From Candidatus Woesearchaeota archaeon (GTDB lineage Archaea > Nanobdellota > Nanobdellia > Pacearchaeales > GW2011-AR1): 64,000 nucleotides of DNA. The stretch spans positions 68,092 through 132,091 of the forward strand of contig CAZXHH010000001.1 in assembly GCA_964639615.1 (NCBI GenBank), in the 5' to 3' direction. Shown here piece by piece: positions 3,871-56,383 of this stretch (within the stretch, counting starts at the first letter, position 1; each line of letters opens with the position of its first letter). The notes beneath the pieces were generated by a model, which saw only the letters and a list, made by a program, of their open reading frames with translations, was not told where the DNA came from and searched no databases. Both the position numbers and the translations under genes were made by a program.

Positions 3871-4139
3871 ACTTAAAGAAAGCTGTTGGAATATCATTAA
3901 TTATCTTTATACTAGTATTTGGTAATATAATTGCATTTGGTTATTTTGGAACCAAATTAACAAAAGTTGAAAATCCTATAAATTCTTCTAGTTCAGAAAA
4001 TACAACTAATTTGGAAAACAAAACAAAAGTAAATTCTAGTGCAAATATTAGCAAAACTGTTATTAATGAAACTAAAAATCAAACAACTGTAACGCCTAAA
4101 CCGACGCCAAGTCCTCCCCCAGTTACAAGAGCTTCATAA
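3867..4139 (+). CDS. Small pilin-like / membrane-anchored peptide with N-glycosylation-sequon-rich Ser/Thr/Pro tail
   Basis: KKAVGISLIIFILVF class III signal-peptide-like N-terminus; 7 N-x-S/T sequons in ~60 aa; TPKPTPSPPP tail. Confidence 0.4.
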   Translation: MNLKKAVGISLIIFILVFGNIIAFGYFGTKLTKVENPINSSSSENTTNLENKTKVNSSANISKTVINETKNQTTVTPKPTPSPPPVTRAS

Positions 4140-22984: not shown

Positions 22985-24118
22985 ATGGATAGTGAAAAGA
23001 GATTTAATCTTATCAAAAGAAATACAGAAGAAGTTATGACTGACGAGGACTTGAAAGCTCTTCTTGAAAGCGGAATAAAAATAAAACATTATATTGGTTT
23101 TGAAATTTCTGGAAAAATTCATCTTGGAACAGGATTAATGTGCATGTCTAAAGTAAAAGACTTTATGGATGCAGGAGTGGATTGTTCTATATTTTTAGCA
23201 GACTGGCATACCTGGATAAACGACAAATTAGGCGGAGACAGAGATGTAATCAAAAGAGTTGCTGTTGAATATTTTAAAGAAGGTATGGAAGCTAGTTTAA
23301 AATGCCTTGGTGGGGACCCAAAAAAATTGAAATTTGTTCTTGGAAGTGATTTATATCATCACAATGATGATTACTGGGTTACAATGGTTGATATTAGCAA
23401 AAACATTAATCTTGCAAGAATGATGAGGAGTATTACAATCTTAGGTAGAAAAGAAGGAGAAGGGGTTGATTTTGCTAAATTAATTTACCCTTCAATGCAA
23501 GTTGCGGATATTTTTGCACAAGGAATTAATCTTCCTCATGCTGGTCTAGACCAGAGAAAAGCTCAAGTTATTGCGAGAGAAGTTGCTTTAAAATTAAAGG
23601 AAAATGCTTTATTAGATAAAGAAGGTAAAAAAATCAAACCTGTTGCAGTTCATCACCATTTACTTTTAGGATTAGGAAAACCTTCAATCTGGCCTGTTAC
23701 AAAAGAACAGCTTCCAGAATTATTATCTGAATTAAAAATGAGTAAATCTAAACCAGACAACTGCGTATTTATTCATGATTCTCCTGAAGAGATTAAAAGA
23801 AAAATTAATCAGGCATTTTGTTTGGAAGGTGAAACTGAATTTAATCCAATTCTAGACTGGACAAAATATTTAATTTTTAGAGATGAAAAATGTAAATTGG
23901 AAATTAAAAGACCTGAAAAGTTCGGTGGAAATAAAACTTATACTTCTTACAAGGCTCTTGAAGAAGATTTTAAAGAGAAAAAATTGCATCCAATGGATTT
24001 GAAAAATGCTGTAGTGGAAGCATTGATAGTACTTCTTGAACCTGCTAGGAAACATTTTGAAAAACCAAAGCAAAAAAAGATGCTTGAAGAACTTGATGAA
24101 ATTCTAAAGAAGAAATAA
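22985..24118 (+). CDS. tyrS: Tyrosyl-tRNA synthetase, archaeal type
   Basis: NLIKRNTEEV...IGFEISGKIHLG, KMSKSKPDN, IKRPEKFGG, LHPMDLKNAV closely parallel M. jannaschii TyrRS. Confidence 0.9.
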   Translation: MDSEKRFNLIKRNTEEVMTDEDLKALLESGIKIKHYIGFEISGKIHLGTGLMCMSKVKDFMDAGVDCSIFLADWHTWINDKLGGDRDVIKRVAVEYFKEGMEASLKCLGGDPKKLKFVLGSDLYHHNDDYWVTMVDISKNINLARMMRSITILGRKEGEGVDFAKLIYPSMQVADIFAQGINLPHAGLDQRKAQVIAREVALKLKENALLDKEGKKIKPVAVHHHLLLGLGKPSIWPVTKEQLPELLSELKMSKSKPDNCVFIHDSPEEIKRKINQAFCLEGETEFNPILDWTKYLIFRDEKCKLEIKRPEKFGGNKTYTSYKALEEDFKEKKLHPMDLKNAVVEALIVLLEPARKHFEKPKQKKMLEELDEILKKK

Positions 24119-27829: not shown

Positions 27830-28615
27830 ATGAAAAAGAGAGAATATAAAATTATTCTGACAATTTTAATTCTTATATTTTTTACAATAAATTACAACAA
27901 TCTTGATAGCTTTGTAACAAAAAACTTTGATAATCAAGAAACAATTGTTGTTGAAAGAGTTATTGATGGGGATACGCTTGTTGATAGCGAAGGAATTCAT
28001 TACAGATTATTGGGAATTAATACTCCAGAAAAAGGAGAGCCTCTTTATTTAGATGCAAAAAAATTTCTTGAAGAAAAAACAATAAATCAAACAATAATTG
28101 TAGAAAAAACTAAAAAGGATAGATATGATAGAGAACTTGCATATTTTTATCTTGGAAAAGCAAATATTAATGAAGAAATTGTAAACAAAGGGTATGCAAA
28201 TTATTATTTTCCTGAAGGAAAGGATAGGTATTACTCAACTTTTTTGGATGCTTGGCTGAATTGCATAGATTCTAACATAAACTTGTGTGAAAAATCAGAA
28301 GATAAATGCTCTTCATGTATCCAATTAACAAAGTGGGATTTTGAAAACCAAGAGATTAGTTTTTACAATAAATGCTCTTTTGACTGTAATTTAAATGGTT
28401 GGACATTAAAAGACGAGGGAAGAAAAAAATTTGTTTTTGAAAACTATATATTAAAGGGCTTAAATTATGTTAATGTTATTGTTGAGAATAAAACTAATTC
28501 TGCAAATAATCTTTATTGGAAAAATGAAGAATATGTCTGGACCTCTTCAGGAGATAGTTTCTTTTTAAGAGATGGAGAAGGAAAGTTAGTGCTTTGGGGG
28601 ACTGAGAATTATTAA
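27830..28615 (+). CDS. Secreted staphylococcal-nuclease (SNase)-like nuclease with C-terminal lamin-tail-like domain
   Basis: Signal/TM N-terminus; VIDGDTLVDSEGIHYRLLGINTPE thermonuclease motif; C-terminal NGWTLKDEGRKKFVF LTD-like. Confidence 0.65.
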   Translation: MKKREYKIILTILILIFFTINYNNLDSFVTKNFDNQETIVVERVIDGDTLVDSEGIHYRLLGINTPEKGEPLYLDAKKFLEEKTINQTIIVEKTKKDRYDRELAYFYLGKANINEEIVNKGYANYYFPEGKDRYYSTFLDAWLNCIDSNINLCEKSEDKCSSCIQLTKWDFENQEISFYNKCSFDCNLNGWTLKDEGRKKFVFENYILKGLNYVNVIVENKTNSANNLYWKNEEYVWTSSGDSFFLRDGEGKLVLWGTENY

Positions 28616-28733: not shown

Positions 28734-29228
28734 TTACATCAATTCGCTACAATCTTCTGGAGGAATAATATAAATACTACCATATCCATTATCAACTATT
28801 GCTTTATTAACAAATAAATTATCTCCCCAATCGTTTACATAAACAAATCTCAATAATCTTCCGTAAGCATCTTTGTCTTTTAAAGAAGAATTAAAACTAA
28901 CTTCTTTGTATAAAATAAGTTCTCTAAGAAATGCTTTTGATTCTTCATAACCTTGTTCTTTTTTTTCTGGAGCATCTACACAGAGCAATCTAACTTTAAG
29001 CATTTTGTCTGTTGTTTCATCATAATATTCAAAAGTATCTCCATCAATTATTTTTACAACAGTATTATTATTTAGCTGTGATTTATTGTAAGCTTTTGGA
29101 AGAGAAGAAATAAATGCCACAATTAACAGAATAAACACAATAAAAACCATCCAATAAACTATCTTATCCCATTCTTTTTTAATTTTCAGCTCATCATTTG
29201 GAAATTGTGATTGATCCTCTTTTTCCAT
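28734..29228 (-). CDS. Membrane-anchored SNase-like nuclease
   Basis: N-terminal TM; VKIIDGDTFEYY...VRLLCVDAPEKKEQGY...YGRLLRFVYVND SNase motifs. Confidence 0.65.
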   Translation of the reverse strand: MEKEDQSQFPNDELKIKKEWDKIVYWMVFIVFILLIVAFISSLPKAYNKSQLNNNTVVKIIDGDTFEYYDETTDKMLKVRLLCVDAPEKKEQGYEESKAFLRELILYKEVSFNSSLKDKDAYGRLLRFVYVNDWGDNLFVNKAIVDNGYGSIYIIPPEDCSELM

Positions 29229-29353: not shown

Positions 29354-32300
29354 ATGGAGAAAAGGGAAAAGTGCTGGAAGTTATTTCTAATTAACATACT
29401 AATTTTAACACTAAGCTTTTCTTTTATTAGTGCTTCTACTTCACTAACAAGCATTAATGTTAATCCTTCAATTACAAATTCTAATCCAGTTCTAACTGTA
29501 ACGCTTAGTGAGAGTAATTCTTCATACCTAATTTCTGGTGCAGAATATTTTATTGATAGTGCTGGTGTAAGTGGAACAGGAAATAGTTTAACTGCTTCAG
29601 ATGGAGCATATGATGAACTAACTGAAGATACAAGTGCTAGTATAGATCTAACAGGTTTAAGTCAGGGCAGCCACACAGTTTATGCTCACGGATTAAATAA
29701 CAATTCTGAATGGGGTGCTTTTTCTACAGTCAGTTTTACAAAAGATACAATTATCCCTACACTAACCTCAATGCAGATTACTGGAGCATATGGTGCTACA
29801 AATAAAATTTCTCCTCAAAATGCAGATGGAAAGTATGATTCTGTTAGAATTATTATGAATTCAAGTGAATCTGTTGATTGGGGAAAAACATCAGTATTAA
29901 ATTCTACAGGACAGGAAATAAAATATTTCAATGGCCCTTCTGGTTATATTAATTCAAATATAGAAACTTGGGATGGAAAAAATAGTTCTGGAAATTATGT
30001 CCTTGATGGAGTTTACACAATTTATACAAATATAACAGACCAAGCAGGAAACTCAAATTTAATCTATGTGGGTTCAGTGATTATAGATAATACTGCTCCA
30101 ATTGGGACAATCACAAAAGGAACTCCTATAATAAGTAACAATGATTTAACACAAGAAATAACAATAAATTATAATGAAGTTATGGATACTTCTTATAGAC
30201 CACTGATTAACTTTACAAATAATATTGGAGAGATTAGAAGTACTGGAGGAAGTTGGAGTACAAATCAAATTTGGACAGAGAATTTCCTTGTTGAAGATGC
30301 AGATGAAGAAACAACAAACGTAATTATTTCTAGTTCATTAGCTAAAGACCTTGTTGAAAACTCAGAAGCTACTTCTATTTCAGCTTCTTTTTCTATTGAT
30401 ACAAAAGCTCCTGTTATCTCTAGTTTGCAAATTAATGCTTCAGATATAGAAATAAATAATGATAATGATGTAACAATTTCAGCAGACATTAGCGAAGGAA
30501 TGTCTACCCCAATAAATGTCTGGCTTGAAGGAAACTGGACTGGGACTTCTGCAAATAACACTTTAAGTTCTTCTTCAGGACATTATAGTTATACTATAAG
30601 CAAAACTCAACTTTCAAATCAGGAATATGTGGGATGGAGAATTTTTACAAGAGATTCTAGAGGAAATATTAGAAGTACAAGCATAAATGGTTTTTTAGTT
30701 AAAAATAGAGCTCCTTTATTTATTCCTTCTATAAATAATATGTCTTGGATTGAAGATGGAGGTTCAAAGACAATTAACTTATCTGATTATTTTTATGATT
30801 TAGATAAAGACATTCTTAATTATACTGCAACAGTTGTTTCTAACAGAGGACCAACATCAGATCCAAATCCTCTTGGGGGAATAACAGTTACAATAAACAA
30901 TGCAACAAAAATTGCAACAATTTCATCAACCTCAGATTGGAATGGTGATGGAACAATTATATTTTATGCTTGGGACTTTGTTGGAGGATACAATAGGAGC
31001 AATACAGTTTATGTAACAGTTATTGCTGATGATAATGAAGCTCCAACACTAACAAGTTCTTTGAGCCCAGTAAACTTCAGTGAAGATACAACTTTCTCTT
31101 TGCAATTATTCTGTGATCCAAATGACCCTGCACAAGTTTGCTTAAATTATAGATATGATGCATCATATATTGATTATAATTCAAATCTAACTGTATCTGT
31201 AAATCCTTCAACAGGACAGGTTACATTAAGTCCAAAATTAAATTGGAATGGGTTAACTTATGTTAAATTTCTTGCTGATGATAATGGAGTTCCTTTAGAA
31301 ACAGGAAGTTTAGTTGTTAGAGTAAATGTAACTCCTGTAAATGATAATCCTATATTAGACGCTCCTGATATAAGCATGATAGAAAATTCTGCTGCACCTT
31401 CTCCAATTAATTTGCTTTCTTATACAACGGATGTAGATAACCAATTAACTTCTATGGTTTATAATTTGGTTAGTCAATCAAATACAAGTTTAATTAATTG
31501 TAGCTTAAATGTAAATACAATAAACTGTGGAGCACCTGCATATAACAAATATGGAATTTCAGATTTAATAGTTAGTGTAATAGATGGAAGTGGTGGCAGT
31601 GATAGTCAAAAGATTACTATTGAAGTAAAAAAGAATCATGCTCCAACAATAAGATCATATTTTCCTGTTGAAAATCCTTTGATAAGAACTGGAAGGCCCC
31701 AGACTTTTGTACTTGTTGCTCAAGATGTTGATAATTTAACAGCTTTAAATTATGTCTGGAAAGTAGATGGAACAATTGTTCAGAATGGAATAGATAATAA
31801 TTATATATTTACACCTTCAGCTGAAAGCAATTATATTGTTAGTGCTGAAGTAAGTGACGAAGTTCCAAACACAGTAACAAAAAGCTGGACAGTTAAGGCA
31901 ACTACTTATCCAATTACAACAGAGTTTAATGGTGATGAAACAACAAATCTTTCAAATCCTTCTTTAGATTTAACAAATGTAAGTTTAGTTTTAGAAAATT
32001 CATACGGTAAAATTGAATTTTTATCTCCTGTTGATTTAACAAAGGCTTGGGACTTGGACAATAATGTTGAAATTTCTTCAAACGGATTAGTTGCTGTTAA
32101 TACTCAGTTATATCCTGCCTTAAATAAACCTGCAAGAATTACACTTTATGGATTGAGCTATAGTTCTTTACCTAAAGTTTATTATTCTTCGAGCTTCACA
32201 ACTTCTCCATTGACTGTTCAACAAGAATGTTCTTCACCTAGATGTAATTTACTCAATTATACTGCATTCCCTACATCTGCTGGAGAGGTTACATTTACTG

Positions 32301-33376
32301 TCTCTCAATTCAGTTCATATGCTGTTAAAGGAAGTGGAATTAATTATGATATTAACAAACTTGATTTAGACAAATGTGAAAACGGAGTCCAAGGAAATCT
32401 AACTGTTGAAATAAAAAATCCTGATGAGGATGAATCTTTTGGACCTGGAGCAGAAATTAAGATTAAATTAAAAGTATCAAACGATAATTCTTTTGATGAT
32501 AAATTCATAGCCAAAGGAATTTTATATAATTTAGATGAAGAAGATGAAGAGGAAACAGAAGAAAGTGATTCTGTTGAAATAGAAACAGAAGATTCAGAAA
32601 CAATTGAATTCTCATTAATTGTCCCAGAAGATATGGATGAAGAAGATGATTATGTTCTATTTGTTAAAGTCTATCAAAAAGGAGAAGAGGAAAATCAATG
32701 CAATTATCAAATAATTGATTTATCTCTTGAAAGAGAAGAACACAAAGTTATAATTAATGATATTGTTTCTGATTTAGAAATTAATACTGGGGAAAAATTA
32801 AACCTTGATATTGATTTAGAAAATATTGGAAGTTCAGACGAAGATGAAGCATATATCAAAATAACAAATAGCGAATTAAAATTAAATGAAAAAACAGATA
32901 CATTTGAAATTGAGAAATATGGTGACGATAATGAATTGACAATAAGCCATAGCATTTTAATTCCACAAAACGCAGCAGGAAAAGAATACACTTTAAGAGT
33001 AGAGGTATTTTATGAAGATGGAAGCACTTTCCAAAATTATATAATAAATGTAAATAATAAATCAATTATAAGTTATGTACCTACAGAAAACTTAATTTAC
33101 TTATCTTCTTCGCAGTCTTCAGGATCTGGAAGTTCTAGTCCTAAAACAATTACTGCATCAAAAACAACTATAACAGGAAAAATAACTGAAAAAGCAGAAG
33201 TTGAAGAAGAGGCTGCTCTTAATGTAAATCTAGATACAGAAGATAAAATAGCTTCTGAATTTAGTACAAATAAGAGTTCAGTAAAAGTAAATTATAATTA
33301 TCTTCCGATAGTGCTTGGTATCGGTATATTGATTTTTGTTTTTGCAATAGTATATCTTTTAATAAAGAAAAGATAA
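29354..33376 (+). CDS. Giant (1340 aa) surface protein: signal peptide, Ig/cadherin-like repeats, acidic segment, Ser/Thr linker, C-terminal TM anchor (S-layer/adhesin candidate)
   Basis: N-terminal signal peptide; PVNDNPILDAPD cadherin-like motif; dozens of N-x-S/T sequons; DEEDEEETEESD acidic run; SSSQSSGSGSSSPKT linker; LPIVLGIGILIFVFAIVYLLIKKR anchor. Confidence 0.6.
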   Translation: MEKREKCWKLFLINILILTLSFSFISASTSLTSINVNPSITNSNPVLTVTLSESNSSYLISGAEYFIDSAGVSGTGNSLTASDGAYDELTEDTSASIDLTGLSQGSHTVYAHGLNNNSEWGAFSTVSFTKDTIIPTLTSMQITGAYGATNKISPQNADGKYDSVRIIMNSSESVDWGKTSVLNSTGQEIKYFNGPSGYINSNIETWDGKNSSGNYVLDGVYTIYTNITDQAGNSNLIYVGSVIIDNTAPIGTITKGTPIISNNDLTQEITINYNEVMDTSYRPLINFTNNIGEIRSTGGSWSTNQIWTENFLVEDADEETTNVIISSSLAKDLVENSEATSISASFSIDTKAPVISSLQINASDIEINNDNDVTISADISEGMSTPINVWLEGNWTGTSANNTLSSSSGHYSYTISKTQLSNQEYVGWRIFTRDSRGNIRSTSINGFLVKNRAPLFIPSINNMSWIEDGGSKTINLSDYFYDLDKDILNYTATVVSNRGPTSDPNPLGGITVTINNATKIATISSTSDWNGDGTIIFYAWDFVGGYNRSNTVYVTVIADDNEAPTLTSSLSPVNFSEDTTFSLQLFCDPNDPAQVCLNYRYDASYIDYNSNLTVSVNPSTGQVTLSPKLNWNGLTYVKFLADDNGVPLETGSLVVRVNVTPVNDNPILDAPDISMIENSAAPSPINLLSYTTDVDNQLTSMVYNLVSQSNTSLINCSLNVNTINCGAPAYNKYGISDLIVSVIDGSGGSDSQKITIEVKKNHAPTIRSYFPVENPLIRTGRPQTFVLVAQDVDNLTALNYVWKVDGTIVQNGIDNNYIFTPSAESNYIVSAEVSDEVPNTVTKSWTVKATTYPITTEFNGDETTNLSNPSLDLTNVSLVLENSYGKIEFLSPVDLTKAWDLDNNVEISSNGLVAVNTQLYPALNKPARITLYGLSYSSLPKVYYSSSFTTSPLTVQQECSSPRCNLLNYTAFPTSAGEVTFTVSQFSSYAVKGSGINYDINKLDLDKCENGVQGNLTVEIKNPDEDESFGPGAEIKIKLKVSNDNSFDDKFIAKGILYNLDEEDEEETEESDSVEIETEDSETIEFSLIVPEDMDEEDDYVLFVKVYQKGEEENQCNYQIIDLSLEREEHKVIINDIVSDLEINTGEKLNLDIDLENIGSSDEDEAYIKITNSELKLNEKTDTFEIEKYGDDNELTISHSILIPQNAAGKEYTLRVEVFYEDGSTFQNYIINVNNKSIISYVPTENLIYLSSSQSSGSGSSSPKTITASKTTITGKITEKAEVEEEAALNVNLDTEDKIASEFSTNKSSVKVNYNYLPIVLGIGILIFVFAIVYLLIKKR

Positions 33377-35421: not shown

Positions 35422-36552
35422 ATGGGTGAAAAAGAGAAAGATGTTGTTGTTAATCCTTACCAAGTTGAAGGAGAAGTTAATTACGACAGACTTGTTAAAG
35501 AATTTGGATTAGAAAAAATTAACGAAGATATTCTAAAGAAAATTAAAAAGCAGACCGGGGAGCTTCATCCCATGCTGAGAAGAGGAATTATGTTTGCCCA
35601 TAGAGATTTAAATTGGATTTTAAATGAGTATGAAAAAGGGAATAAATTTTTCTTATATACTGGATGTGGACCTTCTGGACCAATCCATTTAGGACATTTA
35701 CAAATGTGGTATTTTACAAAATGGTTACAAGATAAATTTGATTGTGAATTGTATTTTCAGTTTACTGATGATGAAAAATTCCTATACAAAGAGAAATCTT
35801 ATGAAGAAATACAAAAATGGACTGAAGAAAATATGTTAGATGTTGCTGCAATTGGATTCAATCCAAAAAAAACACATTTTATCGTAGACACAAAACATGC
35901 TGGAATCATGTATCCTGAAGCTATAAAAATAGCAAAGAAAATAACTTTCTCAACAATTAAATCTAGTTTTGGTTTTACAGACAGCAACAATATTGGAAGT
36001 ATATTTTACACTTCTATGCAAGCTGTACCTGCAATTCTTCCTTCTGTTCTTAAAGGGAAAAATATTCCTTGTTTGATTCCATTGGGTGTTGATCAAGACC
36101 CCCACTTTAGAATTGCAAGAGATGTTTATCCTAAACTAGGATTTTTCAAACCTGCAATTATGCATAAGGTTATGTTCCCTTCTTTAGAAGGAATGAATGC
36201 TGTAATGAGTAGTTCAAAAGGTGCTGCATTAATCACTGCAAACGATACTCCGGCTGAAGTAAAAAATAAAATAAACAAATATGCTTTTTCTGGAGGAAGA
36301 GATACAATTGAAGAGCACAGAAAATTAGGGGGAAATCCAGAAATAGATGTTTCATTCCAATATTTGAAGCACTTTTTTGAAGAAGATGATAAAAAATTAG
36401 AAGAAATTGAAAAAGAGTACAAATCAGGAAAATTATCAACAGGGGAATTAAAAAAATATGCCATTGAAAAGATAAATAAATTTTTAGCTCAACATCAAGA
36501 GAGAAGAAAGAATGCTAAAAAATTAATTCCACAATATATGTTAAAAGTATAA
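35422..36552 (+). CDS. trpS: Tryptophanyl-tRNA synthetase, archaeal/eukaryal type
   Basis: GCGPSGPIHLGHL (HIGH), KMSSSKGAALI (KMSKS), 376 aa. Confidence 0.85.
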   Translation: MGEKEKDVVVNPYQVEGEVNYDRLVKEFGLEKINEDILKKIKKQTGELHPMLRRGIMFAHRDLNWILNEYEKGNKFFLYTGCGPSGPIHLGHLQMWYFTKWLQDKFDCELYFQFTDDEKFLYKEKSYEEIQKWTEENMLDVAAIGFNPKKTHFIVDTKHAGIMYPEAIKIAKKITFSTIKSSFGFTDSNNIGSIFYTSMQAVPAILPSVLKGKNIPCLIPLGVDQDPHFRIARDVYPKLGFFKPAIMHKVMFPSLEGMNAVMSSSKGAALITANDTPAEVKNKINKYAFSGGRDTIEEHRKLGGNPEIDVSFQYLKHFFEEDDKKLEEIEKEYKSGKLSTGELKKYAIEKINKFLAQHQERRKNAKKLIPQYMLKV

Positions 36553-36553
36553 G

Positions 36554-37021
36554 ATGATAAAAAGAGGGGATAAAAAAGCACAGTTTTACTTTATGGCTAC
36601 AATAATAATAGTAGCTTTGCTAATAAGCATTGTTGTTACAATTAATTATTCTTTAAGAACCAAATCTTATGAAGCAGAAGAAATTGCAAAAGATTTAACA
36701 ATTGAAACAGAAAAAGTTTTGGATTATGATACAATTCATTCAACAAATGAATTAGAAGATTTTGCAAAAGTTTATTCTAGATATGTTGGACAAGATAAAG
36801 AGATTTATTTTATTTTTGTAGATAATGATGGAAGTTCTGAAGCTTTTAGATATGTTGGAGAAAATAAAGTGGATTTTACCTCTAGTTTAGCAGTTGAAGG
36901 AAACGAAATTCAATTTATTATGGATAATAATACCTACAAATTTAATCTTAAGGAAGGAAAGAATTTGTATTTTCTTTTAATTTATGAATCTAAAGGGGAA
37001 AAATATGTATTTTCAGGATAA
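36554..37021 (+). CDS. Pilin-like protein (class III signal peptide)
   Basis: MIKRGDKKAQFYFMATIIIVALLISIVV N-terminus; first gene of pilus cluster. Confidence 0.5.
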   Translation: MIKRGDKKAQFYFMATIIIVALLISIVVTINYSLRTKSYEAEEIAKDLTIETEKVLDYDTIHSTNELEDFAKVYSRYVGQDKEIYFIFVDNDGSSEAFRYVGENKVDFTSSLAVEGNEIQFIMDNNTYKFNLKEGKNLYFLLIYESKGEKYVFSG

Positions 37022-38492
37022 AAGAAAAAGAGGAATAAGTATTGTAGTGGGGTATGTTTTATTAGTAACCTTTGCAATTGTAATCGGAGTAATAGTTTAT
37101 CAATGGATGAAAAGCTATGTCCCTCAGGAAGAAATTAATTGTCCTGATGGTTCCTCAATTTTTTTAGAAGATTATTCATATAATTGCGATACAGAAATTT
37201 TAACTTTGTATTTGAAGAATAATGGAAGATTCAGTCTTGGAGGATATTTTATTTATGTTACTAATAAAGAAGAAGCAAAATTAGCCACAATAGATATTTC
37301 AAAAAATAATACAGACCCTAATGCGATATTAGTTCCTACAGGAATTAAATTCGGAGGAATTGGTTCTTTAAATTATCTTGAAGCTGGACAGGAAGAAGTA
37401 GATTATTTTAATTTAACAGGCATAAATCAAATTTATTCTATTGAAATTTTACCTATAAGATGGCAGGAAGAAAAGAATAAACAAATTTTAGCAACTTGTA
37501 AAACAGTAAAAGTAAGAGAAGAAGTTAAATGTAAGGGAGTTGCTGGCTCATCTTCGCAATGTGTTTTCCCTGTTATAAGTCCTTGTACAGGATTAGAATG
37601 TGGAACTATTGCAAATGGAAGTTGTGGAGACATAATATGTGCACCAAATAATTGTGATGCGGGAGAACATTGTGGTGGAGGAATTTGTGTATTAGATACT
37701 TGTACTGGTGCTCCTGTTCCAAATGACAAAGATTCTCTTTGCGGAATTTATGAATGTGGATTTGTTGCAAATGGAAGCTGTGGAAATGTTTTCTGTGGAG
37801 ATAATAATGGTGCTTGCATTGCTCCTGAAACATGTGATGCTGCAACACATACATGTGAATGTGCTACAGAAAGTGATGCAACATTCTGTACAAGATTAGG
37901 AGCAGAGTGTGGAACTTTAACAGGAACAGATAATTGTGGTGTATTAAGATTAAATGTAAATTGCGGAGGATGTGATGCAGATGAAACTTGTAATAATAAT
38001 ATATGTGAGTGTGTTCCTGAAACTAATGTTCAATTCTGTACAAGATTGGGAGTGCAATGTGGAAGTTTATCTGGAACAGATAATTGTGGAAATTCTAGAA
38101 CAGTAAGCGAATGTGGGCCTTGCTCAGGAGTACAAGTTTGTAATAGTGGTATTTGTGTAACTCCTTCTACATGTAATGGAACTTGGGTAAAGTCTCCTCC
38201 AGAAACTGTTGAATGCGATGGAACTCCATTACCTCCTCATTGTCTTGCTGGATGTAGCTGTGAAGCAGGATATGATTCAAGCGGTGGTGGAGGATGTTGG
38301 ATTTCTGGAACAGGTGCAAGTTGCCAAGCTCATTGTATTTCATTAGGATACACTCAAATTCCTGTTGGAAGTTGTAGACAAAATCAAGCTCAATGTAATA
38401 GCTTCTGTCCTGGAATTATTCCTGGAGTTCTTGAAACAGGAGGAAATCAGTGGTGTACAGCTCCTACAATAAATTGTTGTTGTTGTCAATAA
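37005..38492 (+). CDS. Pilin-like protein with ~330-aa cysteine-rich tandem-repeat C-terminal domain
   Basis: MYFQDKRKRGISIVVGYVLLVTFAIVIGVIVY class III SP; >60 Cys; repeated modules CGxxANGSCGxxxC and FCTRLGxxCGxLxGTDNCG (150-nt DNA repeat 37884/38034); ends NCCCCQ. Confidence 0.55.
   Translation: MYFQDKRKRGISIVVGYVLLVTFAIVIGVIVYQWMKSYVPQEEINCPDGSSIFLEDYSYNCDTEILTLYLKNNGRFSLGGYFIYVTNKEEAKLATIDISKNNTDPNAILVPTGIKFGGIGSLNYLEAGQEEVDYFNLTGINQIYSIEILPIRWQEEKNKQILATCKTVKVREEVKCKGVAGSSSQCVFPVISPCTGLECGTIANGSCGDIICAPNNCDAGEHCGGGICVLDTCTGAPVPNDKDSLCGIYECGFVANGSCGNVFCGDNNGACIAPETCDAATHTCECATESDATFCTRLGAECGTLTGTDNCGVLRLNVNCGGCDADETCNNNICECVPETNVQFCTRLGVQCGSLSGTDNCGNSRTVSECGPCSGVQVCNSGICVTPSTCNGTWVKSPPETVECDGTPLPPHCLAGCSCEAGYDSSGGGGCWISGTGASCQAHCISLGYTQIPVGSCRQNQAQCNSFCPGIIPGVLETGGNQWCTAPTINCCCCQ
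37884..38160 (+). repeat. In-frame ~150-nt tandem coding repeat (FCTRLG...CGxxTGTDNCG modules)
   Basis: ttctgtacaagattaggagcagagtgtggaactttaacaggaacagataattgtgg (37884) vs ttctgtacaagattgggagtgcaatgtggaagtttatctggaacagataattgtgg (38034). Confidence 0.7.
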
Positions 38493-38497
38493 TTAAA

Positions 38498-39019
38498 ATG
38501 AAATCAAAAAAAGCTATTAGTGCAATTGTAGAATATGTTTTGCTTGTTACATTTGCTCTCGTAACTGGAGTTATTGTTTATTCTTTCATGAAAACATATG
38601 TTCCGCAAGAAGAATTAAACTGTCCTGATGGTTCCTCTCTTCAAATAAGCGAATATAATTACGATTGTGCAACAAACATGCTTTCAATTAAATTCACAAA
38701 TTCCGGAAGATTTAGTTTAGGCGGATATTTTATTTATACTACAAATAAACCAAATCAAGAATTAGCAACAATAGATTTAACAAAAAATAATACAGATATT
38801 AATTCGAGATTATCTCCAAATGGAATAAAATTTGGATTAATAGGAGTGGATAATTCTCTTGAGCCAAATCAAGAAGAAACAGATACATATAATTTAACAG
38901 GAATTTCTCAAGCATATTCAATACAAATTGTACCTATAAGATGGCAGGAAAAAAAGAACACTCAAATATTAGTCAGCTGTAAAAACGAAAAAATCAAAAA
39001 AACAATAGAATGTGCTTAA
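38498..39019 (+). CDS. Pilin-like paralog of the N-terminal domain of 37005..38492 (no Cys-rich extension)
   Basis: MKSKKAISAIVEYVLLVTFALVTGVIVY...YVPQEELNCPDGSS...GRFSLGGYFIY...LATID..KNNTD...PIRWQEKKN collinear with upstream gene residues 1-170. Confidence 0.55.
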   Translation: MKSKKAISAIVEYVLLVTFALVTGVIVYSFMKTYVPQEELNCPDGSSLQISEYNYDCATNMLSIKFTNSGRFSLGGYFIYTTNKPNQELATIDLTKNNTDINSRLSPNGIKFGLIGVDNSLEPNQEETDTYNLTGISQAYSIQIVPIRWQEKKNTQILVSCKNEKIKKTIECA

Positions 39020-39056
39020 TCAAAGAATTTAAAAATAATAGAGAATATAAAATAAA

Positions 39057-39539
39057 ATGAAAAAGAGGGCAAAGGGATTATCTCCTGTAATTGCAACTGT
39101 TCTTCTGGTTGCCATGGTTATCTCAATTGCGCTTATAGTATTTTTCTGGATTAAAGGTATGACTGAGGAAGCTGTTACAAAATTTGGAGATCAAAATATT
39201 CAATTAGTATGTGGCCAAGTTGCATTTGAAGCAAGCTACGACCAGGACACACTTTATATTACTAATCCTGGAAGTGTTCCAATATTTGGAATGAATGTTA
39301 AAGTTATTGGGGATGGAGAACATTCCACATTAGATTTAAGAGAAGATTCAATTACCTGGCCAGAAGCAGGTTTAAATCAGGGAGGAGTTTTTTCTAGTGA
39401 CCCTGCATCAGATTCTGAGTTAGTATTTAGTGAAGGGCAGGATATAGTTCTTGTTCCTGTACTTATTGGAGAAACGTCAACTGGAAGAAAAACTTATGTT
39501 TGTGATGAGAATCAATATGGACAAGAAATTACAATATAA
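39057..39539 (+). CDS. Archaeal type IV pilin (class III signal peptide)
   Basis: MKKRAKGLSPVIATVLLVAMVISIALIVFFW canonical archaeal prepilin N-terminus. Confidence 0.65.
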   Translation: MKKRAKGLSPVIATVLLVAMVISIALIVFFWIKGMTEEAVTKFGDQNIQLVCGQVAFEASYDQDTLYITNPGSVPIFGMNVKVIGDGEHSTLDLREDSITWPEAGLNQGGVFSSDPASDSELVFSEGQDIVLVPVLIGETSTGRKTYVCDENQYGQEITI

Positions 39540-40053
39540 GAATAAAGGGCTCTCAACTGTTATTGCTACTGTTTTACTTATTGCTTTAGTTATGGCAACT
39601 TCGACAATTGTCTGGGTCTCAACGAATAAATTAATAGACAGCAAAACCAAAGGAACTCAAGAATGTTTTAAAATAGCCTCTTCTGAAAACGTTGTTTTAA
39701 ATGAAGAGTATACTTGTTTTAACCCTACAACTGATGAAGTTCAATTTTCTTTAGATATTGGAGATGTTGAAATAGATGGTGTTGTTATTTCAATTTTAGT
39801 CGGAGGAAATTCAAAAGTTTTCACTTTGACAAATACTCTCCAAGTAATTAGCGATATAAGGCCTTACAAAGGGGTGGTTGGAGATGCAGTTAAACTTCCT
39901 GGAAAAAATGAGGGAAAAACATATATTGCGAGTGGATTTACAGAATCCGAAGTAATACAATGGATAAAAATTGCTCCTATAATCGATGATAAACAGTGTG
40001 ATATGACTGATGAAGTTTACAAAGTTGTTGATTGTAATCTGCTAGTAAATTAA
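39517..40053 (+). CDS. Archaeal type IV pilin (class III signal peptide)
   Basis: MDKKLQYKNKGLSTVIATVLLIALVMATSTIVWV; start overlaps upstream gene end by 23 nt. Confidence 0.6.
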   Translation: MDKKLQYKNKGLSTVIATVLLIALVMATSTIVWVSTNKLIDSKTKGTQECFKIASSENVVLNEEYTCFNPTTDEVQFSLDIGDVEIDGVVISILVGGNSKVFTLTNTLQVISDIRPYKGVVGDAVKLPGKNEGKTYIASGFTESEVIQWIKIAPIIDDKQCDMTDEVYKVVDCNLLVN

Positions 40054-40092
40054 GATGAAAAATATTATAAAGCAAATCTTATTTAATTTAAT

Positions 40093-40641
40093 ATGAAAAA
40101 AGGTGATTTGAAGAAATCTTTAGTTGGTTGCAAAGGGCAAGTTTGGATTGAAACTGTAATTTACCTTCTTATAGCACTGGTTATGATTAGTTTAGTATTA
40201 GCGTTTGTAAAACCTAAAATTGAAGAACTTCGAGATCAAGCAATAATTGACCAATCAATTGAAATACTAAAAAATATTGACAATTCTATACTTACAATGG
40301 GTGAAGCTGGAAACAAAAGAGTTCTTGAAATTGGAATTAAAAAAGGTACGCTTACAATTGATTCTATAAATGATAATATAATTTTTGAAATTGACAGCAG
40401 ATACTTATATACTGAAGTAGGTCAAACAGTTAATTTAGGAAATATTCAAGCAACTACAGAAGATAAAGGGAAGAACAATCTTGTAACATTAAAAAGAGAT
40501 TTTAGTGAAGAATATAATTTAACTTACAAGGGAGAAGAGAATGCTAAAACCTTTCCCAAATCATCAACTCCTTACACAATCTCTTTGACTAATAAGGGAG
40601 AGTTTTCAAATAAAATAAAGATTGATTTTGATATCCAATAA
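40093..40641 (+). CDS. Pilin-like protein (class III signal peptide)
   Basis: MKKGDLKKSLVGCKGQVWIETVIYLLIALVMISLVLAFV. Confidence 0.5.
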   Translation: MKKGDLKKSLVGCKGQVWIETVIYLLIALVMISLVLAFVKPKIEELRDQAIIDQSIEILKNIDNSILTMGEAGNKRVLEIGIKKGTLTIDSINDNIIFEIDSRYLYTEVGQTVNLGNIQATTEDKGKNNLVTLKRDFSEEYNLTYKGEENAKTFPKSSTPYTISLTNKGEFSNKIKIDFDIQ

Positions 40642-40642
40642 A

Positions 40643-42199
40643 ATGCCAGTAAAAAGTACAGCAATAAAAGACTATCCAAGACCAAAAATAAACTTTAATC
40701 CAGTTGTTCCTCCATTAAAGAGAATTAAAGATAAAACTAAAGTTGATGTAAGATATTGCTTAATCTCTCCTTATACTTTCGTGCATATTCATTGGGATCC
40801 TAAGGTTTATGAAATTGTATATGATATTGAAGAGCCAATTTTAACAGATGAAGAAGAAAAACAGAAAAATGAAATTATGCTTGCAATGAATAATATCATT
40901 GATTTTGAAACAGTTGTTGAAAAAGAAAGAGAAAAACTTCTTGAATATATTGATAAAAGATTCAAAATACTTGCAATAGAACTTGGAATGGAATTATCTT
41001 ATGAAACTTACAAAAAAATATTTTATTACTTATGTAGAGATTTTATGGGTTTTAATGAAGCAGAACCTCTTTTAAGAGATTATTTTGTGGAAGATATTGA
41101 ATGTAATGGTGCAAATTCTCCAATATATATTGTTCACAGAATTTATAGAAATATGAAAACTAGCTTAGTATTTAATGATATGGATAGACTTCAAAGTTTT
41201 GTTGAAAAACTTGCACAAAGATGTGGAAAATATATTTCGTATGCGAAGCCAATTTTAGATGGAAGTCTTCCAGATGGTTCCAGAGTTAATGCTACATATA
41301 CGAAGGATATTACAAGTAAAGGTCCAACATTCACAATCAGAAAGTTCACAAAAACTCCGTGGACTCCTCCTCAATTAATTGCTTTTGGAACATTAAGTCC
41401 TGAAATTCTTGCATATTTGTGGTTATTAGTTCAGTATAAAATGAATATCTTAATTACAGGTGGAACCTCTGCAGGAAAAACAACTCTTCTTAATGCTATT
41501 GCTTTCTTTATCCCTCCTGAATCAAGAGTGGTTTCAATTGAAGATACACGTGAATTAAATCTTCCAAGAGACAACTGGCTACCTAGTGTTGCGAGAAGTT
41601 CTACAGGTGTTGGTACAACAGGAGAAATTAGCTTGTTTGATTTATTGAGAAGTTCATTCAGACAAAACCCAGATTATGTAATTGTGGGAGAAGTTAGAGG
41701 TGCAGAGGCATCAGTATTATTCCAGGGAATGGCTTCAGGACACTCATCAATCAGTACAATTCACGCAGATTCTGTTGATACATTAATTAAAAGATTAGAA
41801 ACTCCTCCAATTGAACTTTCACCTACGCTTCTTAATGTTCTTGATTGTGTATGTATTATGACTCATGCAATAGTAAATAAAGAAGAAACCAGAAAATTAA
41901 AAGAAGTTGTTGAAATAATGAACGTAACTCTTGACGGTATTGCTCTTACAAATACTCCATTTATGTGGAATGCGCTTGAAAATGAATTCTATTCTAAGAA
42001 AAATAGTAAAATTTACGAAAAAATTAGAAAAAGATATGGTATTAAGGTTGAAGACTTAGAAATTGAATTTAGAAAAAGAGTTCAATTATTATATAATTTA
42101 TATCAAAGAAAAATATTCAAATTTGAAGAAGTTCAGGATATAGTAAATGAATACTACAAAAAACCTCAGGAAATTTTGAAAAAATACGGGGTAGAATAA
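40643..42199 (+). CDS. Type IV pilus / archaellum-family assembly ATPase (PilB/FlaI/TadA superfamily)
   Basis: Walker A GGTSAGKTT, Asp box, Walker B DYVIVGEVRG, His box HSSISTIHA; 518 aa. Confidence 0.85.
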   Translation: MPVKSTAIKDYPRPKINFNPVVPPLKRIKDKTKVDVRYCLISPYTFVHIHWDPKVYEIVYDIEEPILTDEEEKQKNEIMLAMNNIIDFETVVEKEREKLLEYIDKRFKILAIELGMELSYETYKKIFYYLCRDFMGFNEAEPLLRDYFVEDIECNGANSPIYIVHRIYRNMKTSLVFNDMDRLQSFVEKLAQRCGKYISYAKPILDGSLPDGSRVNATYTKDITSKGPTFTIRKFTKTPWTPPQLIAFGTLSPEILAYLWLLVQYKMNILITGGTSAGKTTLLNAIAFFIPPESRVVSIEDTRELNLPRDNWLPSVARSSTGVGTTGEISLFDLLRSSFRQNPDYVIVGEVRGAEASVLFQGMASGHSSISTIHADSVDTLIKRLETPPIELSPTLLNVLDCVCIMTHAIVNKEETRKLKEVVEIMNVTLDGIALTNTPFMWNALENEFYSKKNSKIYEKIRKRYGIKVEDLEIEFRKRVQLLYNLYQRKIFKFEEVQDIVNEYYKKPQEILKKYGVE

Positions 42200-42236
42200 T
42201 CAAAATATTTAATAAGACAAAATTACTTTTTCTAAG

Positions 42237-42419
42237 ATGGATAAAGAGGTTGAAAAAGAAGAGGGTCCAGCTAGTTTTTTGAAACAACTTGTAGCAACTT
42301 TAGAAGATGCAAGTTTGAAATTAGAACAAGCTTACAAAAACGACAAAGCTGAACAAGTTAGTGCAATAAAGCAATTTATTCTAAGAATACAGACTAAAAT
42401 TGACGAGGAATTAAAATAA
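42237..42419 (+). CDS. Small helical protein between ATPase and platform genes
   Basis: 60 aa ORF, stop overlaps start of next gene. Confidence 0.3.
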   Translation: MDKEVEKEEGPASFLKQLVATLEDASLKLEQAYKNDKAEQVSAIKQFILRIQTKIDEELK

Positions 42420-43757
42420 ATGGCAAAAAAAGATATGAGAATAATAGCTGAATTAAAGGAAGTCATTTCAAAAGAGAAAAAGATAGTTTCTGAACTTACT
42501 TCTATTCAAAAATATTATAATGAAGCGAGCGAAGGGGAAAAAGGTATGCTAGATTCTCAAATTAAATCCATGAAGGATAATTTGAAACAAACAAATTCTC
42601 AAATTCCAGTTATTTTAGATAAAATACTTACTGCAAAAAAATTAAATCCGGATTGGGAATCTACAGCAGAAAGAGCAGAAGACAAGTGGGCAGATAAAAA
42701 TAAACTTACAAATAAAAATGCTGCTGCAAAACCAAAACAACAAATTCTTCCTTATACTGAAAGAGGATATTCTCTAAGGGAATTGAAACCAACTGTTCTA
42801 GAAAAACAAACAATTAAAAGAATGAAAGAAAAAGACATCAAAAAAGAAGAAATAAAAGAACAGCAAGCTAATGTTTATGTTAAATTTGCTAACAAACTAT
42901 TCTCTAACTACTCTGAGCAGATGGTTAAAGATAAAACATTTGAATTAGAGAGGGATTTAATAAAAGCAAATCTCCCATATACTGAAAGAAGTTATATCTC
43001 AATGATTTTTCTTACTACACTAATAGCAATCGTTGCTAGTATAATTATTGCTCTTTTTTTCCTATTTTTCAATTTAAGTGCATCAATGCCAATAATATCT
43101 AAAGCAACAGATATTGCTCCAAGAATTTGGAAAGTTCTTCTTATTGTTTTATTCGCCCCAATTTTAACTTTTATTTTTATGTATACTTATCCTGGATTGG
43201 AAAGAGGAGCATCAGAATCAAGAATAAATGAAGAATTGCCTTTTGCAACAATTCACATGTCTGCTATTTCTGGTTCTATGATTGACCCTAGCAAGATATT
43301 TGATATTATAATTACAACTCATGAATATCCTTATCTTGAAAAGGAATTCAAAAAACTCCTTAATGAAATAAATCTCTATGGATATGATTTAGTAAGTGCT
43401 TTAAGAACAAGTTCATTTAATTCTCCAAGTAAAAAACTTGCGGAACTATTTAATGGTCTTGCAACAACAATAAATTCTGGAGGAGATTTGCCAGCTTTCT
43501 TTGATAAAAGATCACAGACATTATTATTTGAAAACAGACTTGAACAAGAAAAAAAGACAAAGGCCGCAGAAACTTTTATGGATATGTACATTAGCTTAGT
43601 TGTTGCTGCACCAATGATTTTAATGATTTTACTTATGATGATGAAGATTAGTGGACTTGGAATTTCAATGAGTACTCAAATGATCACAGTTGTTATGGTA
43701 ATGGCTGTTGCAGGTATAAATGCAGTCTTCCTTACCTTCCTTCAATTAAAAAGATAA
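42420..43757 (+). CDS. TadC/FlaJ-like membrane platform protein (T2SSF domain)
   Basis: Long cytoplasmic coiled N-region then TM helices and LATTINSGGDLPAFFDKRSQTL T2SSF-like motif. Confidence 0.6.
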   Translation: MAKKDMRIIAELKEVISKEKKIVSELTSIQKYYNEASEGEKGMLDSQIKSMKDNLKQTNSQIPVILDKILTAKKLNPDWESTAERAEDKWADKNKLTNKNAAAKPKQQILPYTERGYSLRELKPTVLEKQTIKRMKEKDIKKEEIKEQQANVYVKFANKLFSNYSEQMVKDKTFELERDLIKANLPYTERSYISMIFLTTLIAIVASIIIALFFLFFNLSASMPIISKATDIAPRIWKVLLIVLFAPILTFIFMYTYPGLERGASESRINEELPFATIHMSAISGSMIDPSKIFDIIITTHEYPYLEKEFKKLLNEINLYGYDLVSALRTSSFNSPSKKLAELFNGLATTINSGGDLPAFFDKRSQTLLFENRLEQEKKTKAAETFMDMYISLVVAAPMILMILLMMMKISGLGISMSTQMITVVMVMAVAGINAVFLTFLQLKR

Positions 43758-43823
43758 AATGAACAATAAACATTGTATATGTCCTCATAAATTCCGGATA
43801 CAAAATCCAGGAGATTTTGCATA

Positions 43824-44693
43824 ATGGAGATAAAAAACGCACATATAATTGGAATAGTAGTAGGAGTTATAATCGTAGGTTTGTCTTTTTTACTTAGGGG
43901 AACTGATTACTTCTTTTTAACTATAGGAGTAGGAGTTCTTTCTGGAGCCTTGCCTTTTGTAATTAGTTTGATTGCTGAGACAAAGGCTGAAAATGAAAAG
44001 GAAGAGATGTTCTTAGAATTTACAAGAAATCTTGTTGAAAGTGTAAAAACAGGAACTCCTATTAGTAGAAGCATTATTAATCTTAAAGGAAAATCATTCG
44101 GTGTTTTAGGCCCGCATATTAAAAAACTTGCAAATCAGATTTCTTTAGGTATACCAATAAATTCTGCACTTCAAGTTTTTGCTAAAGATGTAGATAATCA
44201 GACTGTATCAAGAACAATAATCTTAATTGGACAAGCTGAAAGAGCAGGAGGAGAGATTGGAGAAATTCTTGAGGCAGTTGCAGAAGCTGTAAGTATTTCA
44301 GATAAGATTAAGAAAGAAAGAAAGGCTGCAATTTCAACACTAGTAGTCCAGGGCTATATTATTTTCTTTGTGTTCATGATGATTATTCTTATAATGCAAT
44401 TTCAAATTCTTCCAATGGTTTCTGGTATTGCAGATTTAGGAGCAATTGGGGGAGGAAATTTTGGTGGAGTCGCAATAAGTGGAAATGCAGGTATTGAAGA
44501 AGATGAAATGTCTAAATCTTTCCTATATCTTCTTTTAATTCAGGGTTTTTTTACAGGATTAACTGTGGGTAAATTAGGTGAAGGCTCAATAAAAGCTGGA
44601 ATAAAACACTCTTTTGCTTTAATGGTAATTTCTTTTACAGTTTCTTCACTAGCGAATATAATTTTTGGTGGAGCAGCTGCAGCAGCAGCTTAA
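43824..44693 (+). CDS. Second TadC/FlaJ-like membrane platform protein (T2SSF domain)
   Basis: TM helices flanking LANQISLGIPINSALQVFAKD...GQAERAGGEIGEILEAVAE T2SSF-like segment. Confidence 0.55.
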   Translation: MEIKNAHIIGIVVGVIIVGLSFLLRGTDYFFLTIGVGVLSGALPFVISLIAETKAENEKEEMFLEFTRNLVESVKTGTPISRSIINLKGKSFGVLGPHIKKLANQISLGIPINSALQVFAKDVDNQTVSRTIILIGQAERAGGEIGEILEAVAEAVSISDKIKKERKAAISTLVVQGYIIFFVFMMIILIMQFQILPMVSGIADLGAIGGGNFGGVAISGNAGIEEDEMSKSFLYLLLIQGFFTGLTVGKLGEGSIKAGIKHSFALMVISFTVSSLANIIFGGAAAAAA

Positions 44694-55978: not shown

Positions 55979-56383
55979 ATGAAATACGAAGAGGCTCCTG
56001 ATTTACAAATAATCGCAGAAGACATATCTAAAACCTTATTCCCTCATATTATAATGGAAAGAGTGAAATGCTATAGAAGTTATGGAAGTTCTACAAGAGG
56101 AACAATTGCCAGATGTCATGCTTTGGGAAAATTAATGCAAAAAGCAATAGGTGTTGAAGCTTATTATGCTCTTGAATTTTTATCTGCAAGATTTGATAAA
56201 TTGACTAAAGAGGATCAAATAAAAACAATAATTCATGAATTAATGCATATACCTCAGACATTTGGTGGAGGATTCAGACATCACGACCATGTTACTGAAA
56301 AAAATGTAAATCTTATGTATAAGACATATATTGCAAAGAAGGAAGGAAGAGAAATATATGAAAGAAAAGGATGGTTTAGCTAA
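55979..56383 (+). CDS. Putative zinc metallopeptidase (HExxH)
   Basis: IIHELMHIP HExxH motif; 134 aa. Confidence 0.4.
   Translation: MKYEEAPDLQIIAEDISKTLFPHIIMERVKCYRSYGSSTRGTIARCHALGKLMQKAIGVEAYYALEFLSARFDKLTKEDQIKTIIHELMHIPQTFGGGFRHHDHVTEKNVNLMYKTYIAKKEGREIYERKGWFS

Follow-up and report, generated by a model that had tools for sequence, protein, structure and literature searches.

A conserved non-motility type IV pilus operon, probably adhesive, with a modular pilin family in a Woesearchaeota archaeon

In several clades of archaeal type IV pili, loci with two tadC-like genes have been reported, as have operons with multiple pilins and a minor pilin that varies in length and tends to be duplicated (PMC4858521). 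The TadB/TadC pair of the Epd pilus of Methanococcus maripaludis and of the bacterial Tad system has been read as gene fission of a two-domain ancestor (PMC6668835). In the modular pilins PilB and PilC of Streptococcus sanguinis, which are modelled at the filament tip, the ConA-like module has been shown experimentally to be a lectin (PMC9934059). Here we set against these systems a cluster of ten genes (g1 to g10) found in a 64,000-nucleotide stretch of Candidatus Woesearchaeota archaeon DNA (GenBank assembly GCA_964639615.1, contig CAZXHH010000001.1, positions 68,092 to 132,091 of the forward strand), hereafter called the window, whose first letter is position 1. We consider it likely that this cluster is a non-motility type IV pilus operon, probably an adhesive one, of a DPANN archaeon of the Woesearchaeota/Pacearchaeota group. 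It encodes six pilin-like proteins (g1 to g6), an assembly ATPase (g7), a soluble protein of 60 amino acids (aa; g8) and the two halves of a FlaJ/PilC platform (g9 and g10).

The ten genes are co-oriented on the forward strand, with gaps of at most 66 nucleotides (nt) between neighbours, and they recur as a unit. We collected 80 related loci from a collection holding one genome per species and assigned their open reading frames (ORFs) to g1-g10 by phmmer. In 50 loci the sequence reaches 6.5 kb or more upstream of g9. Of these, 32 keep all nine families in the order g1-g2(/g3)-g4-g5-g6-ATPase-g8-g9-g10 and 8 more lack only a detectable g8 (40/50 in all). This order is seen in Woesearchaeota, Pacearchaeota and Nanoarchaeota. 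The platform gene is found in 403 species genomes, and nearly all of the matched stretches that encode a relative belong to records titled Woesearchaeota, Pacearchaeota, Nanoarchaeota or Diapherotrites/Iainarchaeum, which supports a DPANN origin of the window. The operon is not unusual for its lineage. Since flanking genes are common to the nearest relatives only, g1-g10 is the conserved unit. Upstream, a class I Trp/Tyr-type tRNA synthetase gene (trpS) ends 1 nt before g1, an arrangement common to the nine closest relatives, and downstream of g10 lies a convergent M14/AstE-like peptidase gene. Judged by these two neighbours, the boundaries are those of a preliminary description, made from the sequence alone, which had placed a Tad/type IV pilus-like locus at 36554-44693. 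Two of the related loci (L016 and L063), both in the metagenome-assembled genome JBDRGM01, are complete copies of the pilus operon on two contigs, which may represent two loci or a mixed bin.

The assembly ATPase is readily recognised. The g7 protein matches T2SSE at 9.7e-33 and carries all four catalytic boxes, namely Walker A (GGTSAGKTT), the Asp box, Walker B and the His box, which bears out its earlier assignment to the PilB/FlaI family. Among solved relatives it is closest to Archaeoglobus fulgidus GspE2 (2OAP, 358 bits), followed by Sulfolobus FlaI (283) and CpaF (164), and against the TadA-family model it reaches 150 bits, the cutoff being 373. Some ATPase orthologues are about 1000 aa long and contain LAGLIDADG homing-endonuclease inteins (L002:1262-4441, L057:5158-8172 and L069:6682-9681). 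These occupy two different sites: in L002 the intein follows about residue 234, and in L057 and L069 it follows about residue 300, close to the Asp box. The g7 protein of the window has no intein.

The platform is divided between g9, which has transmembrane (TM) helices and matches T2SSF at 3.2e-14 over residues 279-404, and g10, which matches it at 1e-14. The two align as colinear halves to positions 36-236 and 267-548, respectively, of the 555-position FlaJ model, so that the two T2SSF domains of a platform of the type IV filament superfamily are supplied by g9 and g10 jointly. Although both genes share a reading frame, the 66 nt between them hold three TAA stops, g10 has its own GGAG ribosome-binding site, and the two are separate ORFs in 79/79 related loci, the longest g9 relative having at most 497 aa. 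A frameshift, a read-through stop and a sequencing artefact were therefore rejected as explanations, and the division over two T2SSF proteins, already proposed in the preliminary description, is real. More than 1600 homologues of g9 were found, and the best 120 have a single T2SSF domain and are mostly about 440-460 aa long, a few being shorter (326-400 aa). Nothing informative came from profile searches of g9 and g10 against PDB sequences.

The gene between the ATPase and the platform genes, g8, had also been noted before and is present in 66/81 loci. No family matches it and no TM segment is predicted; its product would be a helical, cytoplasmic protein. Across loci, the g8 stop and the g9 start typically share 4 nt; g8 appears translationally coupled to g9 and could possibly act as an adaptor between ATPase and platform. 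An N-terminal extension of about 190 aa, rich in Lys and Glu, distinguishes g9 and may form a cytoplasmic coiled coil.

All six genes g1-g6 begin with a class III signal, that is, a short basic leader followed by [KR][GA] and a single hydrophobic helix of about 20-30 residues, with cleavage predicted after G/A at position -1. Their starts were chosen adjacent to the signal before the motif was read. A scan of the 64-kb window that took in all ORFs with all their possible starts found such N-termini clustered nowhere else; besides g1-g6 it picked up a single 90-aa ORF standing alone and stretches inside polytopic membrane proteins. In the orthologues (11-61 per family) position -1 is G or A in 93-100% and position -2 is K or R in 76-100%, and because of this conservation the motif cannot be put down to chance. 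The signals in the window read KRG/ISIVV in g2, KKA/ISAIV in g3, AKG/LSPVIATVLL in g4, NKG/LSTVIATVLL in g5 and CKG/QVWIE in g6 (the slash marks the predicted cleavage site). The six pilin-like N-termini of the preliminary description are thus all present and conserved, but its "six pilins" resolve into five orthologous families and one recent duplicate: g3 shares 62% identity with the pilin domain of g2 over 171 residues, and a pair of a long and a short member is confined to the closest relatives. The pilin complement is a fixed set of five families, not the result of free multiplication.

Pfam assigns none of these families, except g4 weakly, and their relationships were traced by profile comparison. 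The g4 protein passes TIGR02537, the curated archaellin/pilin N-terminal model (33.6 bits, cutoff 20), matches UpsA at 2.8e-8 and scores 20.7 bits against Pilin_N; its family profile matches the solved archaeal pilins 8FK7 (4.5e-9), Iho670 (5KYH, 1.3e-4), 8REY and Natrinema PilA2. The g2 family profile is homologous to that of g4 over its full length (hhalign 98%) and matches 8FK7 at 4.6e-5, while g5, with four conserved Cys, is a full-length distant paralogue of g4 (hhalign 99%, E 2e-18, 137 columns). With g1, for which a single N-terminal TM helix is predicted, the g4 profile shares the signal and helix only (hhalign 53%). The g6 family is without a Pfam model, comprises 894 clusters at 50% identity, and its profile has no similarity to the g4 profile or to PDB pilin sequences. 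Some of its members are labelled PulG or UPF0333 by the Joint Genome Institute (JGI), and its Gln+1 and Glu+5 resemble an Epd/UPF0333-type signal. An AlphaFold2 (AF2) model of g6 built on a 39-sequence alignment (predicted local distance difference test, pLDDT, 86.4; predicted template modelling score 0.70) has the shape of a pilin: a 55-residue helix at the N-terminus (13-68) leads into an all-beta domain. Of the six proteins, g4 is the strongest candidate for the major subunit of the filament.

The isolated 90-aa ORF that emerged from the scan has the class III-like N-terminus KKA/VGISLIIFILVF. Because of a 4-nt overlap with the end of a ferric-reductase-like gene, and because no pilin family matches it, it is unlikely to be a stand-alone short pilin and is probably a small membrane subunit.

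What is new here is the modular build of the g2 family. Its base form, represented in the window by g3, is about 175 aa long with four conserved Cys, and most orthologues have this length; extended versions of 350-894 aa occur in about 20 loci. In g2 itself the class III signal and a pilin domain of about 170 aa are followed by a Cys-rich C-terminal module of 320 residues, which holds 48 of the 52 Cys of the protein. At the orthologous position other loci carry other modules, namely Laminin_G_3/ConA-like in L013, GH141_M (the GH141 insertion domain) in L035 and DUF4215 Cys-rich repeats in L021 and L069; in L016 two extra extended pilins, one of 354 aa with Laminin_G_3 and one of 530 aa, are inserted in the operon. 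The family thus joins a class III signal and a pilin domain to a C-terminal domain that varies between orthologues, which makes it a family of modular pilins. As read from the protein sequences, these exchangeable modules support an adhesive function of the pilus.

The S. sanguinis type IV pili offer a precedent for this pilin architecture, since they too have five pilins, some of which carry a binding module at the C-terminus of the pilin moiety, a ConA-like lectin among them (PMC9934059). The Laminin_G_3 (ConA-like) fusions of L013 and L016 parallel its lectin pilin, and by analogy with PilB and PilC the g2-family pilin is a candidate tip adhesin. The analogy spans two domains of life, the S. 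sanguinis system being bacterial and its proteins unrelated beyond the pilin principle; moreover, the module in the window is a Cys-rich repeat and not a recognised lectin. Pfam gives no match for this module, and its database relatives number only 24. One of them is a 98%-identical pilin, and the others are mostly secreted or lipoprotein-like proteins of high-GC bacteria with the same repeat of about 45 aa (E[ST]D..FC.R.G..CG..T..DNCG..R.V.CG.C), for example in Lujinxingia vulgaris (Bradymonadales). The shared repeat suggests an inter-domain transfer of the g2 module. Separately, L026 encodes a 1229-aa protein with RCC1 repeats and Laminin_G_3 (L026:6073-9762), inserted between the ATPase gene and g8.

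How the locus stands among described machines can be judged from these components. Like the euryarchaeal-type pili (clade 2 of Makarova et al., 2016, and related; Haloferax adhesion pili), it has an ATPase gene followed by TadC/FlaJ-like platform gene(s), a multi-FlaFind-type-pilin operon and one duplication-prone pilin family of variable length, as described for arCOG02911. GspE2 of A. fulgidus is the closest solved ATPase, and the likeness to clade 2 is judged by gene content. Unlike those pili, it has five lineage-specific pilin families, the conserved 60-aa gene and the 190-aa extension on the N-terminal half of the platform. With the Epd pilus and the bacterial Tad system (type IVc) it shares a platform made of two single-T2SSF genes, but in those systems the platform genes precede the ATPase, whereas the order here is ATPase, g8, N-terminal half and C-terminal half (PMC6668835). 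By bit score, g7 is also far nearer to archaeal GspE2/FlaI than to CpaF. In Tad loci the C-half-like TadB precedes TadC. Furthermore, a TadZ/FlaH-type second ATPase is not present nearby (the MinD, KaiC and FlaH families were absent from the window ORFs of at least 100 aa) and the pilins, at 155-182 aa, are not Flp-sized. The label "Tad-like", which the preliminary description had attached to the locus, is therefore weak, given the distance of the ATPase from CpaF, the pilin size, the absence of a TadZ-like gene nearby and the gene order.

Taken together, the components suggest the following working model. The six prepilins of five families would enter the membrane via their N-terminal helix and be cleaved after [KR][KR][GA] by a prepilin peptidase encoded elsewhere in the genome. 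The hexameric PilB/FlaI-family ATPase g7 would power polymerisation through g9 and g10, acting together as one FlaJ/PilC, with g8 and the long N-terminal extension of g9 as probable cytoplasmic partners. The filament would most likely be formed by g4, perhaps with its paralogue g5, while g1, g2/g3 and g6 would probably be low-abundance pilins that prime assembly and cap the filament. At the tip, the g2-family pilin might show its variable C-terminal binding module, Cys-rich here and ConA-like lectin or GH141-type in relatives. Expression is predicted to start from four leaderless units, g1-g3, g4-g5, g6-g7 and g8-g10.

The prediction of these units comes from promoter-like elements that resemble a transcription factor B recognition element (BRE) and TATA box (Table 1). 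An A-rich motif recurs at a constant distance from the ATG of g1 (24/49 loci), g4 (33/56), g6 (19/60) and g8 (35/63), with its centre about 26 nt upstream, whereas the same BRE/TATA-like motif is rare upstream of g2 (3/50), g5 (6/58), g7 (1/68), g9 (1/78) and g10 (8/79). Because this position fits the usual geometry of archaeal promoters, four leaderless transcription units are predicted. Upstream of g6 the consensus AAAATATTATAAA is conserved at a fixed offset, and the element upstream of g8 is nearly identical in more than 25 loci, where the intergenic gap is typically 36-38 nt. For g1 the family consensus is AAAATTAATAAA at about -31 in 24/49 loci, and the copy in the window is a partial match. 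Rearrangements in relatives fall mostly at junctions of the predicted units. In L034, for instance, g8-g10 stands apart from g1-g7 and in the opposite orientation, and foreign genes are inserted at the g7/g8 or g5/g6 junctions of several loci; some insertions lie between g4 and g5.

Coordinates are collected in Table 1. The start of g5 overlaps the end of g4 by 23 nt; for g7 we used the gene call of an identical public contig, TTG at 40622 being an alternative start.

Table 1. Genes of the pilus operon, promoter-like elements and other features of the window (a slash in a motif marks the predicted cleavage site).
Feature	Position	Strand	Description	Family motif of orthologues
g1	36554-37021	+	prepilin-like protein, 155 aa, probable minor pilin	K[RK][GA]/QFYL; Gln+1 in 50/50 orthologues, -1 G/A in 50/50
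g2	37005-38492 (refined start; ORF from 36984)	+	modular pilin, 495 aa	K[KR][GA]/[VIL]SxxIGYVLL
g2 C-terminal module	37530-38492	+	Cys-rich module	
g3	38498-39019 (refined start; ORF from 38450)	+	short g2 paralogue, 173 aa	K[KR][GA]/[VIL]SxxIGYVLL
g4	39057-39539	+	canonical archaeal type IV pilin, 160 aa	K[KR][GA]/[LVI]SPVIATVLL
g5	39517-40053 (refined start; ORF from 39451)	+	pilin, 178 aa	K[KR][GA]/LSxV
g6	40093-40641	+	distinct pilin family, 182 aa; gene abuts ATPase gene	[KR][RK][GA]/Q[VI]W[VI]E; Gln+1 and Glu+5 in 61/61 orthologues
g7	40643-42199	+	PilB/FlaI/GspE-family hexameric assembly ATPase, 518 aa	
g8	42237-42419	+	conserved 60-aa soluble protein	
g9	42420-43757	+	FlaJ/PilC platform, N-terminal half, 445 aa	
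g10	43824-44693	+	FlaJ/PilC platform, C-terminal half, 289 aa, one T2SSF domain	
TATA-like element TAAAAAATTAATT	36516-36528	+	weaker, tentative; upstream of g1, inside trpS 3' end	
BRE/TATA-like element GAATTTAAAAAT	39025-39036	+	centred about 27 nt upstream of g4 ATG; predicted promoter, leaderless g4-g5 transcript	
BRE/TATA-like element GAAAAATATTATAAAG	40057-40072	+	about 26 nt upstream of g6 ATG; predicted promoter, g6-ATPase transcript	
BRE/TATA-like element CAAAATATTTAATAA	42201-42215	+	about 26 nt upstream of g8 ATG; predicted promoter, leaderless g8-g9-g10 transcript	
90-aa ORF	3867-4139	+	probably small membrane subunit	
SLT-domain protein	13799-14596	+	lytic transglycosylase	
tRNA synthetase	22985-24118	+	class I, Trp/Tyr family	
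SNase-type nuclease	27830-28615	+		
SNase-type nuclease	28734-29228	-		
surface protein	29354-33376	+	1340 aa; possible S-layer protein or adhesin	
trpS	35422-36552	+	class I Trp/Tyr-type tRNA synthetase	
small protein	55979-56383	+	putative phage metallopeptidase family	
dockerin protein	60656-62398	+	580 aa	

Several points weigh against the reading as a pilus. A strict FlaFind-style pattern matches g2, g3 and g5 only, and our pilin calls are based on orthologue conservation instead. The AF2 model of g1, made without an alignment, is weak (pLDDT 63.6, low confidence) and consists of a helix followed by beta strands, and a Foldseek comparison of the g6 model with the PDB gave no significant match. 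Moreover, a prepilin peptidase (A24; FlaK, PibD, EppA) was found neither by Pfam scans of the window ORFs of at least 100 aa nor in the flanks of the related loci. Multi-TM ORFs from the window and from 81 loci were also searched for a GxGD motif, and the sole candidate noted was an unconserved GGGD protein with 8 TM segments in L018. Processing of the pilins is therefore assumed for the window; prepilin peptidase genes are usually unlinked to pilus operons.

Other machines that use homologous parts have to be weighed against a non-motility pilus. An archaellum, the swimming organelle, has a homologous ATPase and platform and subunits with the same class III signal, and public annotation points in this direction: the best NCBIfam model of g7 is FlaI (NF058587, 380.8 bits, 1e-113), JGI names g7 orthologues "flagellar protein FlaI" and g9 homologues FlaJ, and Woesearchaeota genome studies score these ATPase and platform genes as "flagellar motility" (PMC11606122). 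The FlaI score, however, stays below the equivalog cutoff of 550 bits, GspE2 of A. fulgidus is closer to g7 than FlaI among solved structures, and the split platform is unlike FlaJ models. Family scans of the operon and of the window ORFs of at least 100 aa found no archaellin, FlaF, FlaG, FlaH/KaiC, FlaC/D/E or MinD-like protein, which agrees with the earlier statement that archaellum genes are lacking. An archaellum is thus the most improbable of the explanations that we considered. A short pseudopilus serving secretion or surface assembly, as in type II secretion or the Sulfolobus bindosome, instead of a long external pilus, would account for five pilin-like families, which recall the one major and four minor type II subunits (PMC9934059), and for the PulG-like JGI annotation and Glu+5 of g6. 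We consider it very unlikely, as there is no outer membrane or secretin to cross and the bulky C-terminal modules of the g2 family suit display at a filament tip better than a piston. With regard to the bindosome (Bas), a weak BasE match of 201 bits is far from the equivalog cutoff of 1000 and BasF gives 17 bits against 1300; unlike in that system, no pilin-signal sugar-binding proteins are encoded by g1-g6, in which the family scan found no substrate-binding domain.

It might also be asked whether the pilus serves mainly for competence-like uptake of extracellular DNA or nucleotides, with secreted nucleases processing captured DNA for a nucleotide-auxotrophic cell. Two SNase-type nucleases are encoded 8 kb upstream, and in eight more distant loci (L020, L024, L037, L039, L041, L046, L068 and L075) g1 is preceded, at a distance of 0.7-4.5 kb and on the same strand, by an orthologue of the SNase with a lamin-tail domain. 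Com pili likewise have a single ATPase and five pilin families. The nuclease linkage could, however, be gene order inherited within one subclade; the window showed neither a DNA-binding pilin nor a ComEC-like channel nor DprA, and the lectin-type and carbohydrate-active modules of the pilins point to binding of glycans or surfaces, so that uptake as the main function appears unlikely. Adhesion by a non-motility pilus remains our preferred reading, although for reasons other than those first put forward. The preliminary description had inferred an adhesive pilus, not a motility apparatus, and from the high number of pilins and the split platform a specialised attachment organelle such as that of an episymbiont. 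The absence of archaellum genes stands, and adhesion is plausible, but by way of the lectin-like, GH141-type and Cys-rich modules. The split and the number of pilins say nothing on episymbiosis, since both are ordinary in archaeal pili, including those of free-living species (PMC4858521, PMC6668835).

The surroundings of the operon contain further genes. The GC content is about 30% across the whole window, which also encodes archaeal housekeeping genes and four tRNAs, as well as another class I tRNA synthetase of the Trp/Tyr family. Each of the two SNase-type nucleases has one predicted TM segment and is probably secreted or membrane-anchored, and one of them has the lamin-tail domain. In the 1340-aa surface protein, an N-terminal signal, an acidic region and a C-terminal membrane anchor are accompanied by weak Ig-like, cadherin-like and Rib-like matches and by a borderline match to the Nup98-type autopeptidase (S59; 27.0 bits, cutoff 28.4); an S-layer protein or an adhesin would be possible. 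This archaeal genome also encodes the SLT-domain lytic transglycosylase (9e-17; two predicted TM segments), an enzyme that cleaves peptidoglycan and could act on bacterial cell walls. A type I dockerin domain (1.2e-7), as in the 580-aa protein, is not usual for an archaeon with a small genome, and a small protein matches a putative phage metallopeptidase family at 6.9e-20.

The episymbiosis pili of Saccharibacteria, members of the candidate phyla radiation (CPR), are likewise conserved type IV pili of an ultrasmall, probably host-dependent organism (PMC9894109, PMC11623550). They differ in being built by bacterial T4aP machinery for which there is experimental evidence, while the link to host attachment here is by analogy only. 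We tentatively put forward, as a possible but doubtful extension, that Woesearchaeota, Pacearchaeota and Nanoarchaeota have in this five-family pilus a common organelle for recognising hosts or surfaces, whose tip pilin (the g2 family and occasional inserted pilins) swaps modules and thereby alters partner specificity. The modules exchanged would include ConA-like lectins, GH141-type domains and the Cys-rich repeats also present in Bradymonadales-like bacterial lipoproteins. If this were true, it would be the archaeal counterpart of the Saccharibacteria episymbiosis pilus, and the host range of uncultured DPANN archaea could be read directly from their genomes.

The kind of machine is already known; what makes this member useful is that its annotation is corrected and that one of its pilins is modular. 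In a preprint, type IV pili were reported to be missing from DPANN archaea, and pili were used to assign imaged cells to CPR bacteria (10.1101/2020.05.14.094862). We found no published description of this pilin set or of module swapping in the literature searched. The main value of our analysis lies in correcting and refining annotation, since the ATPase and platform genes are routinely labelled FlaI and FlaJ. To these it adds the full conserved anatomy of the operon, with five pilin families that had lacked annotation, the small partner protein and the four promoter-like elements. The pilin family with exchangeable modules, furthermore, provides concrete candidates for how uncultured, probably host-dependent archaea may attach to partners or surfaces.

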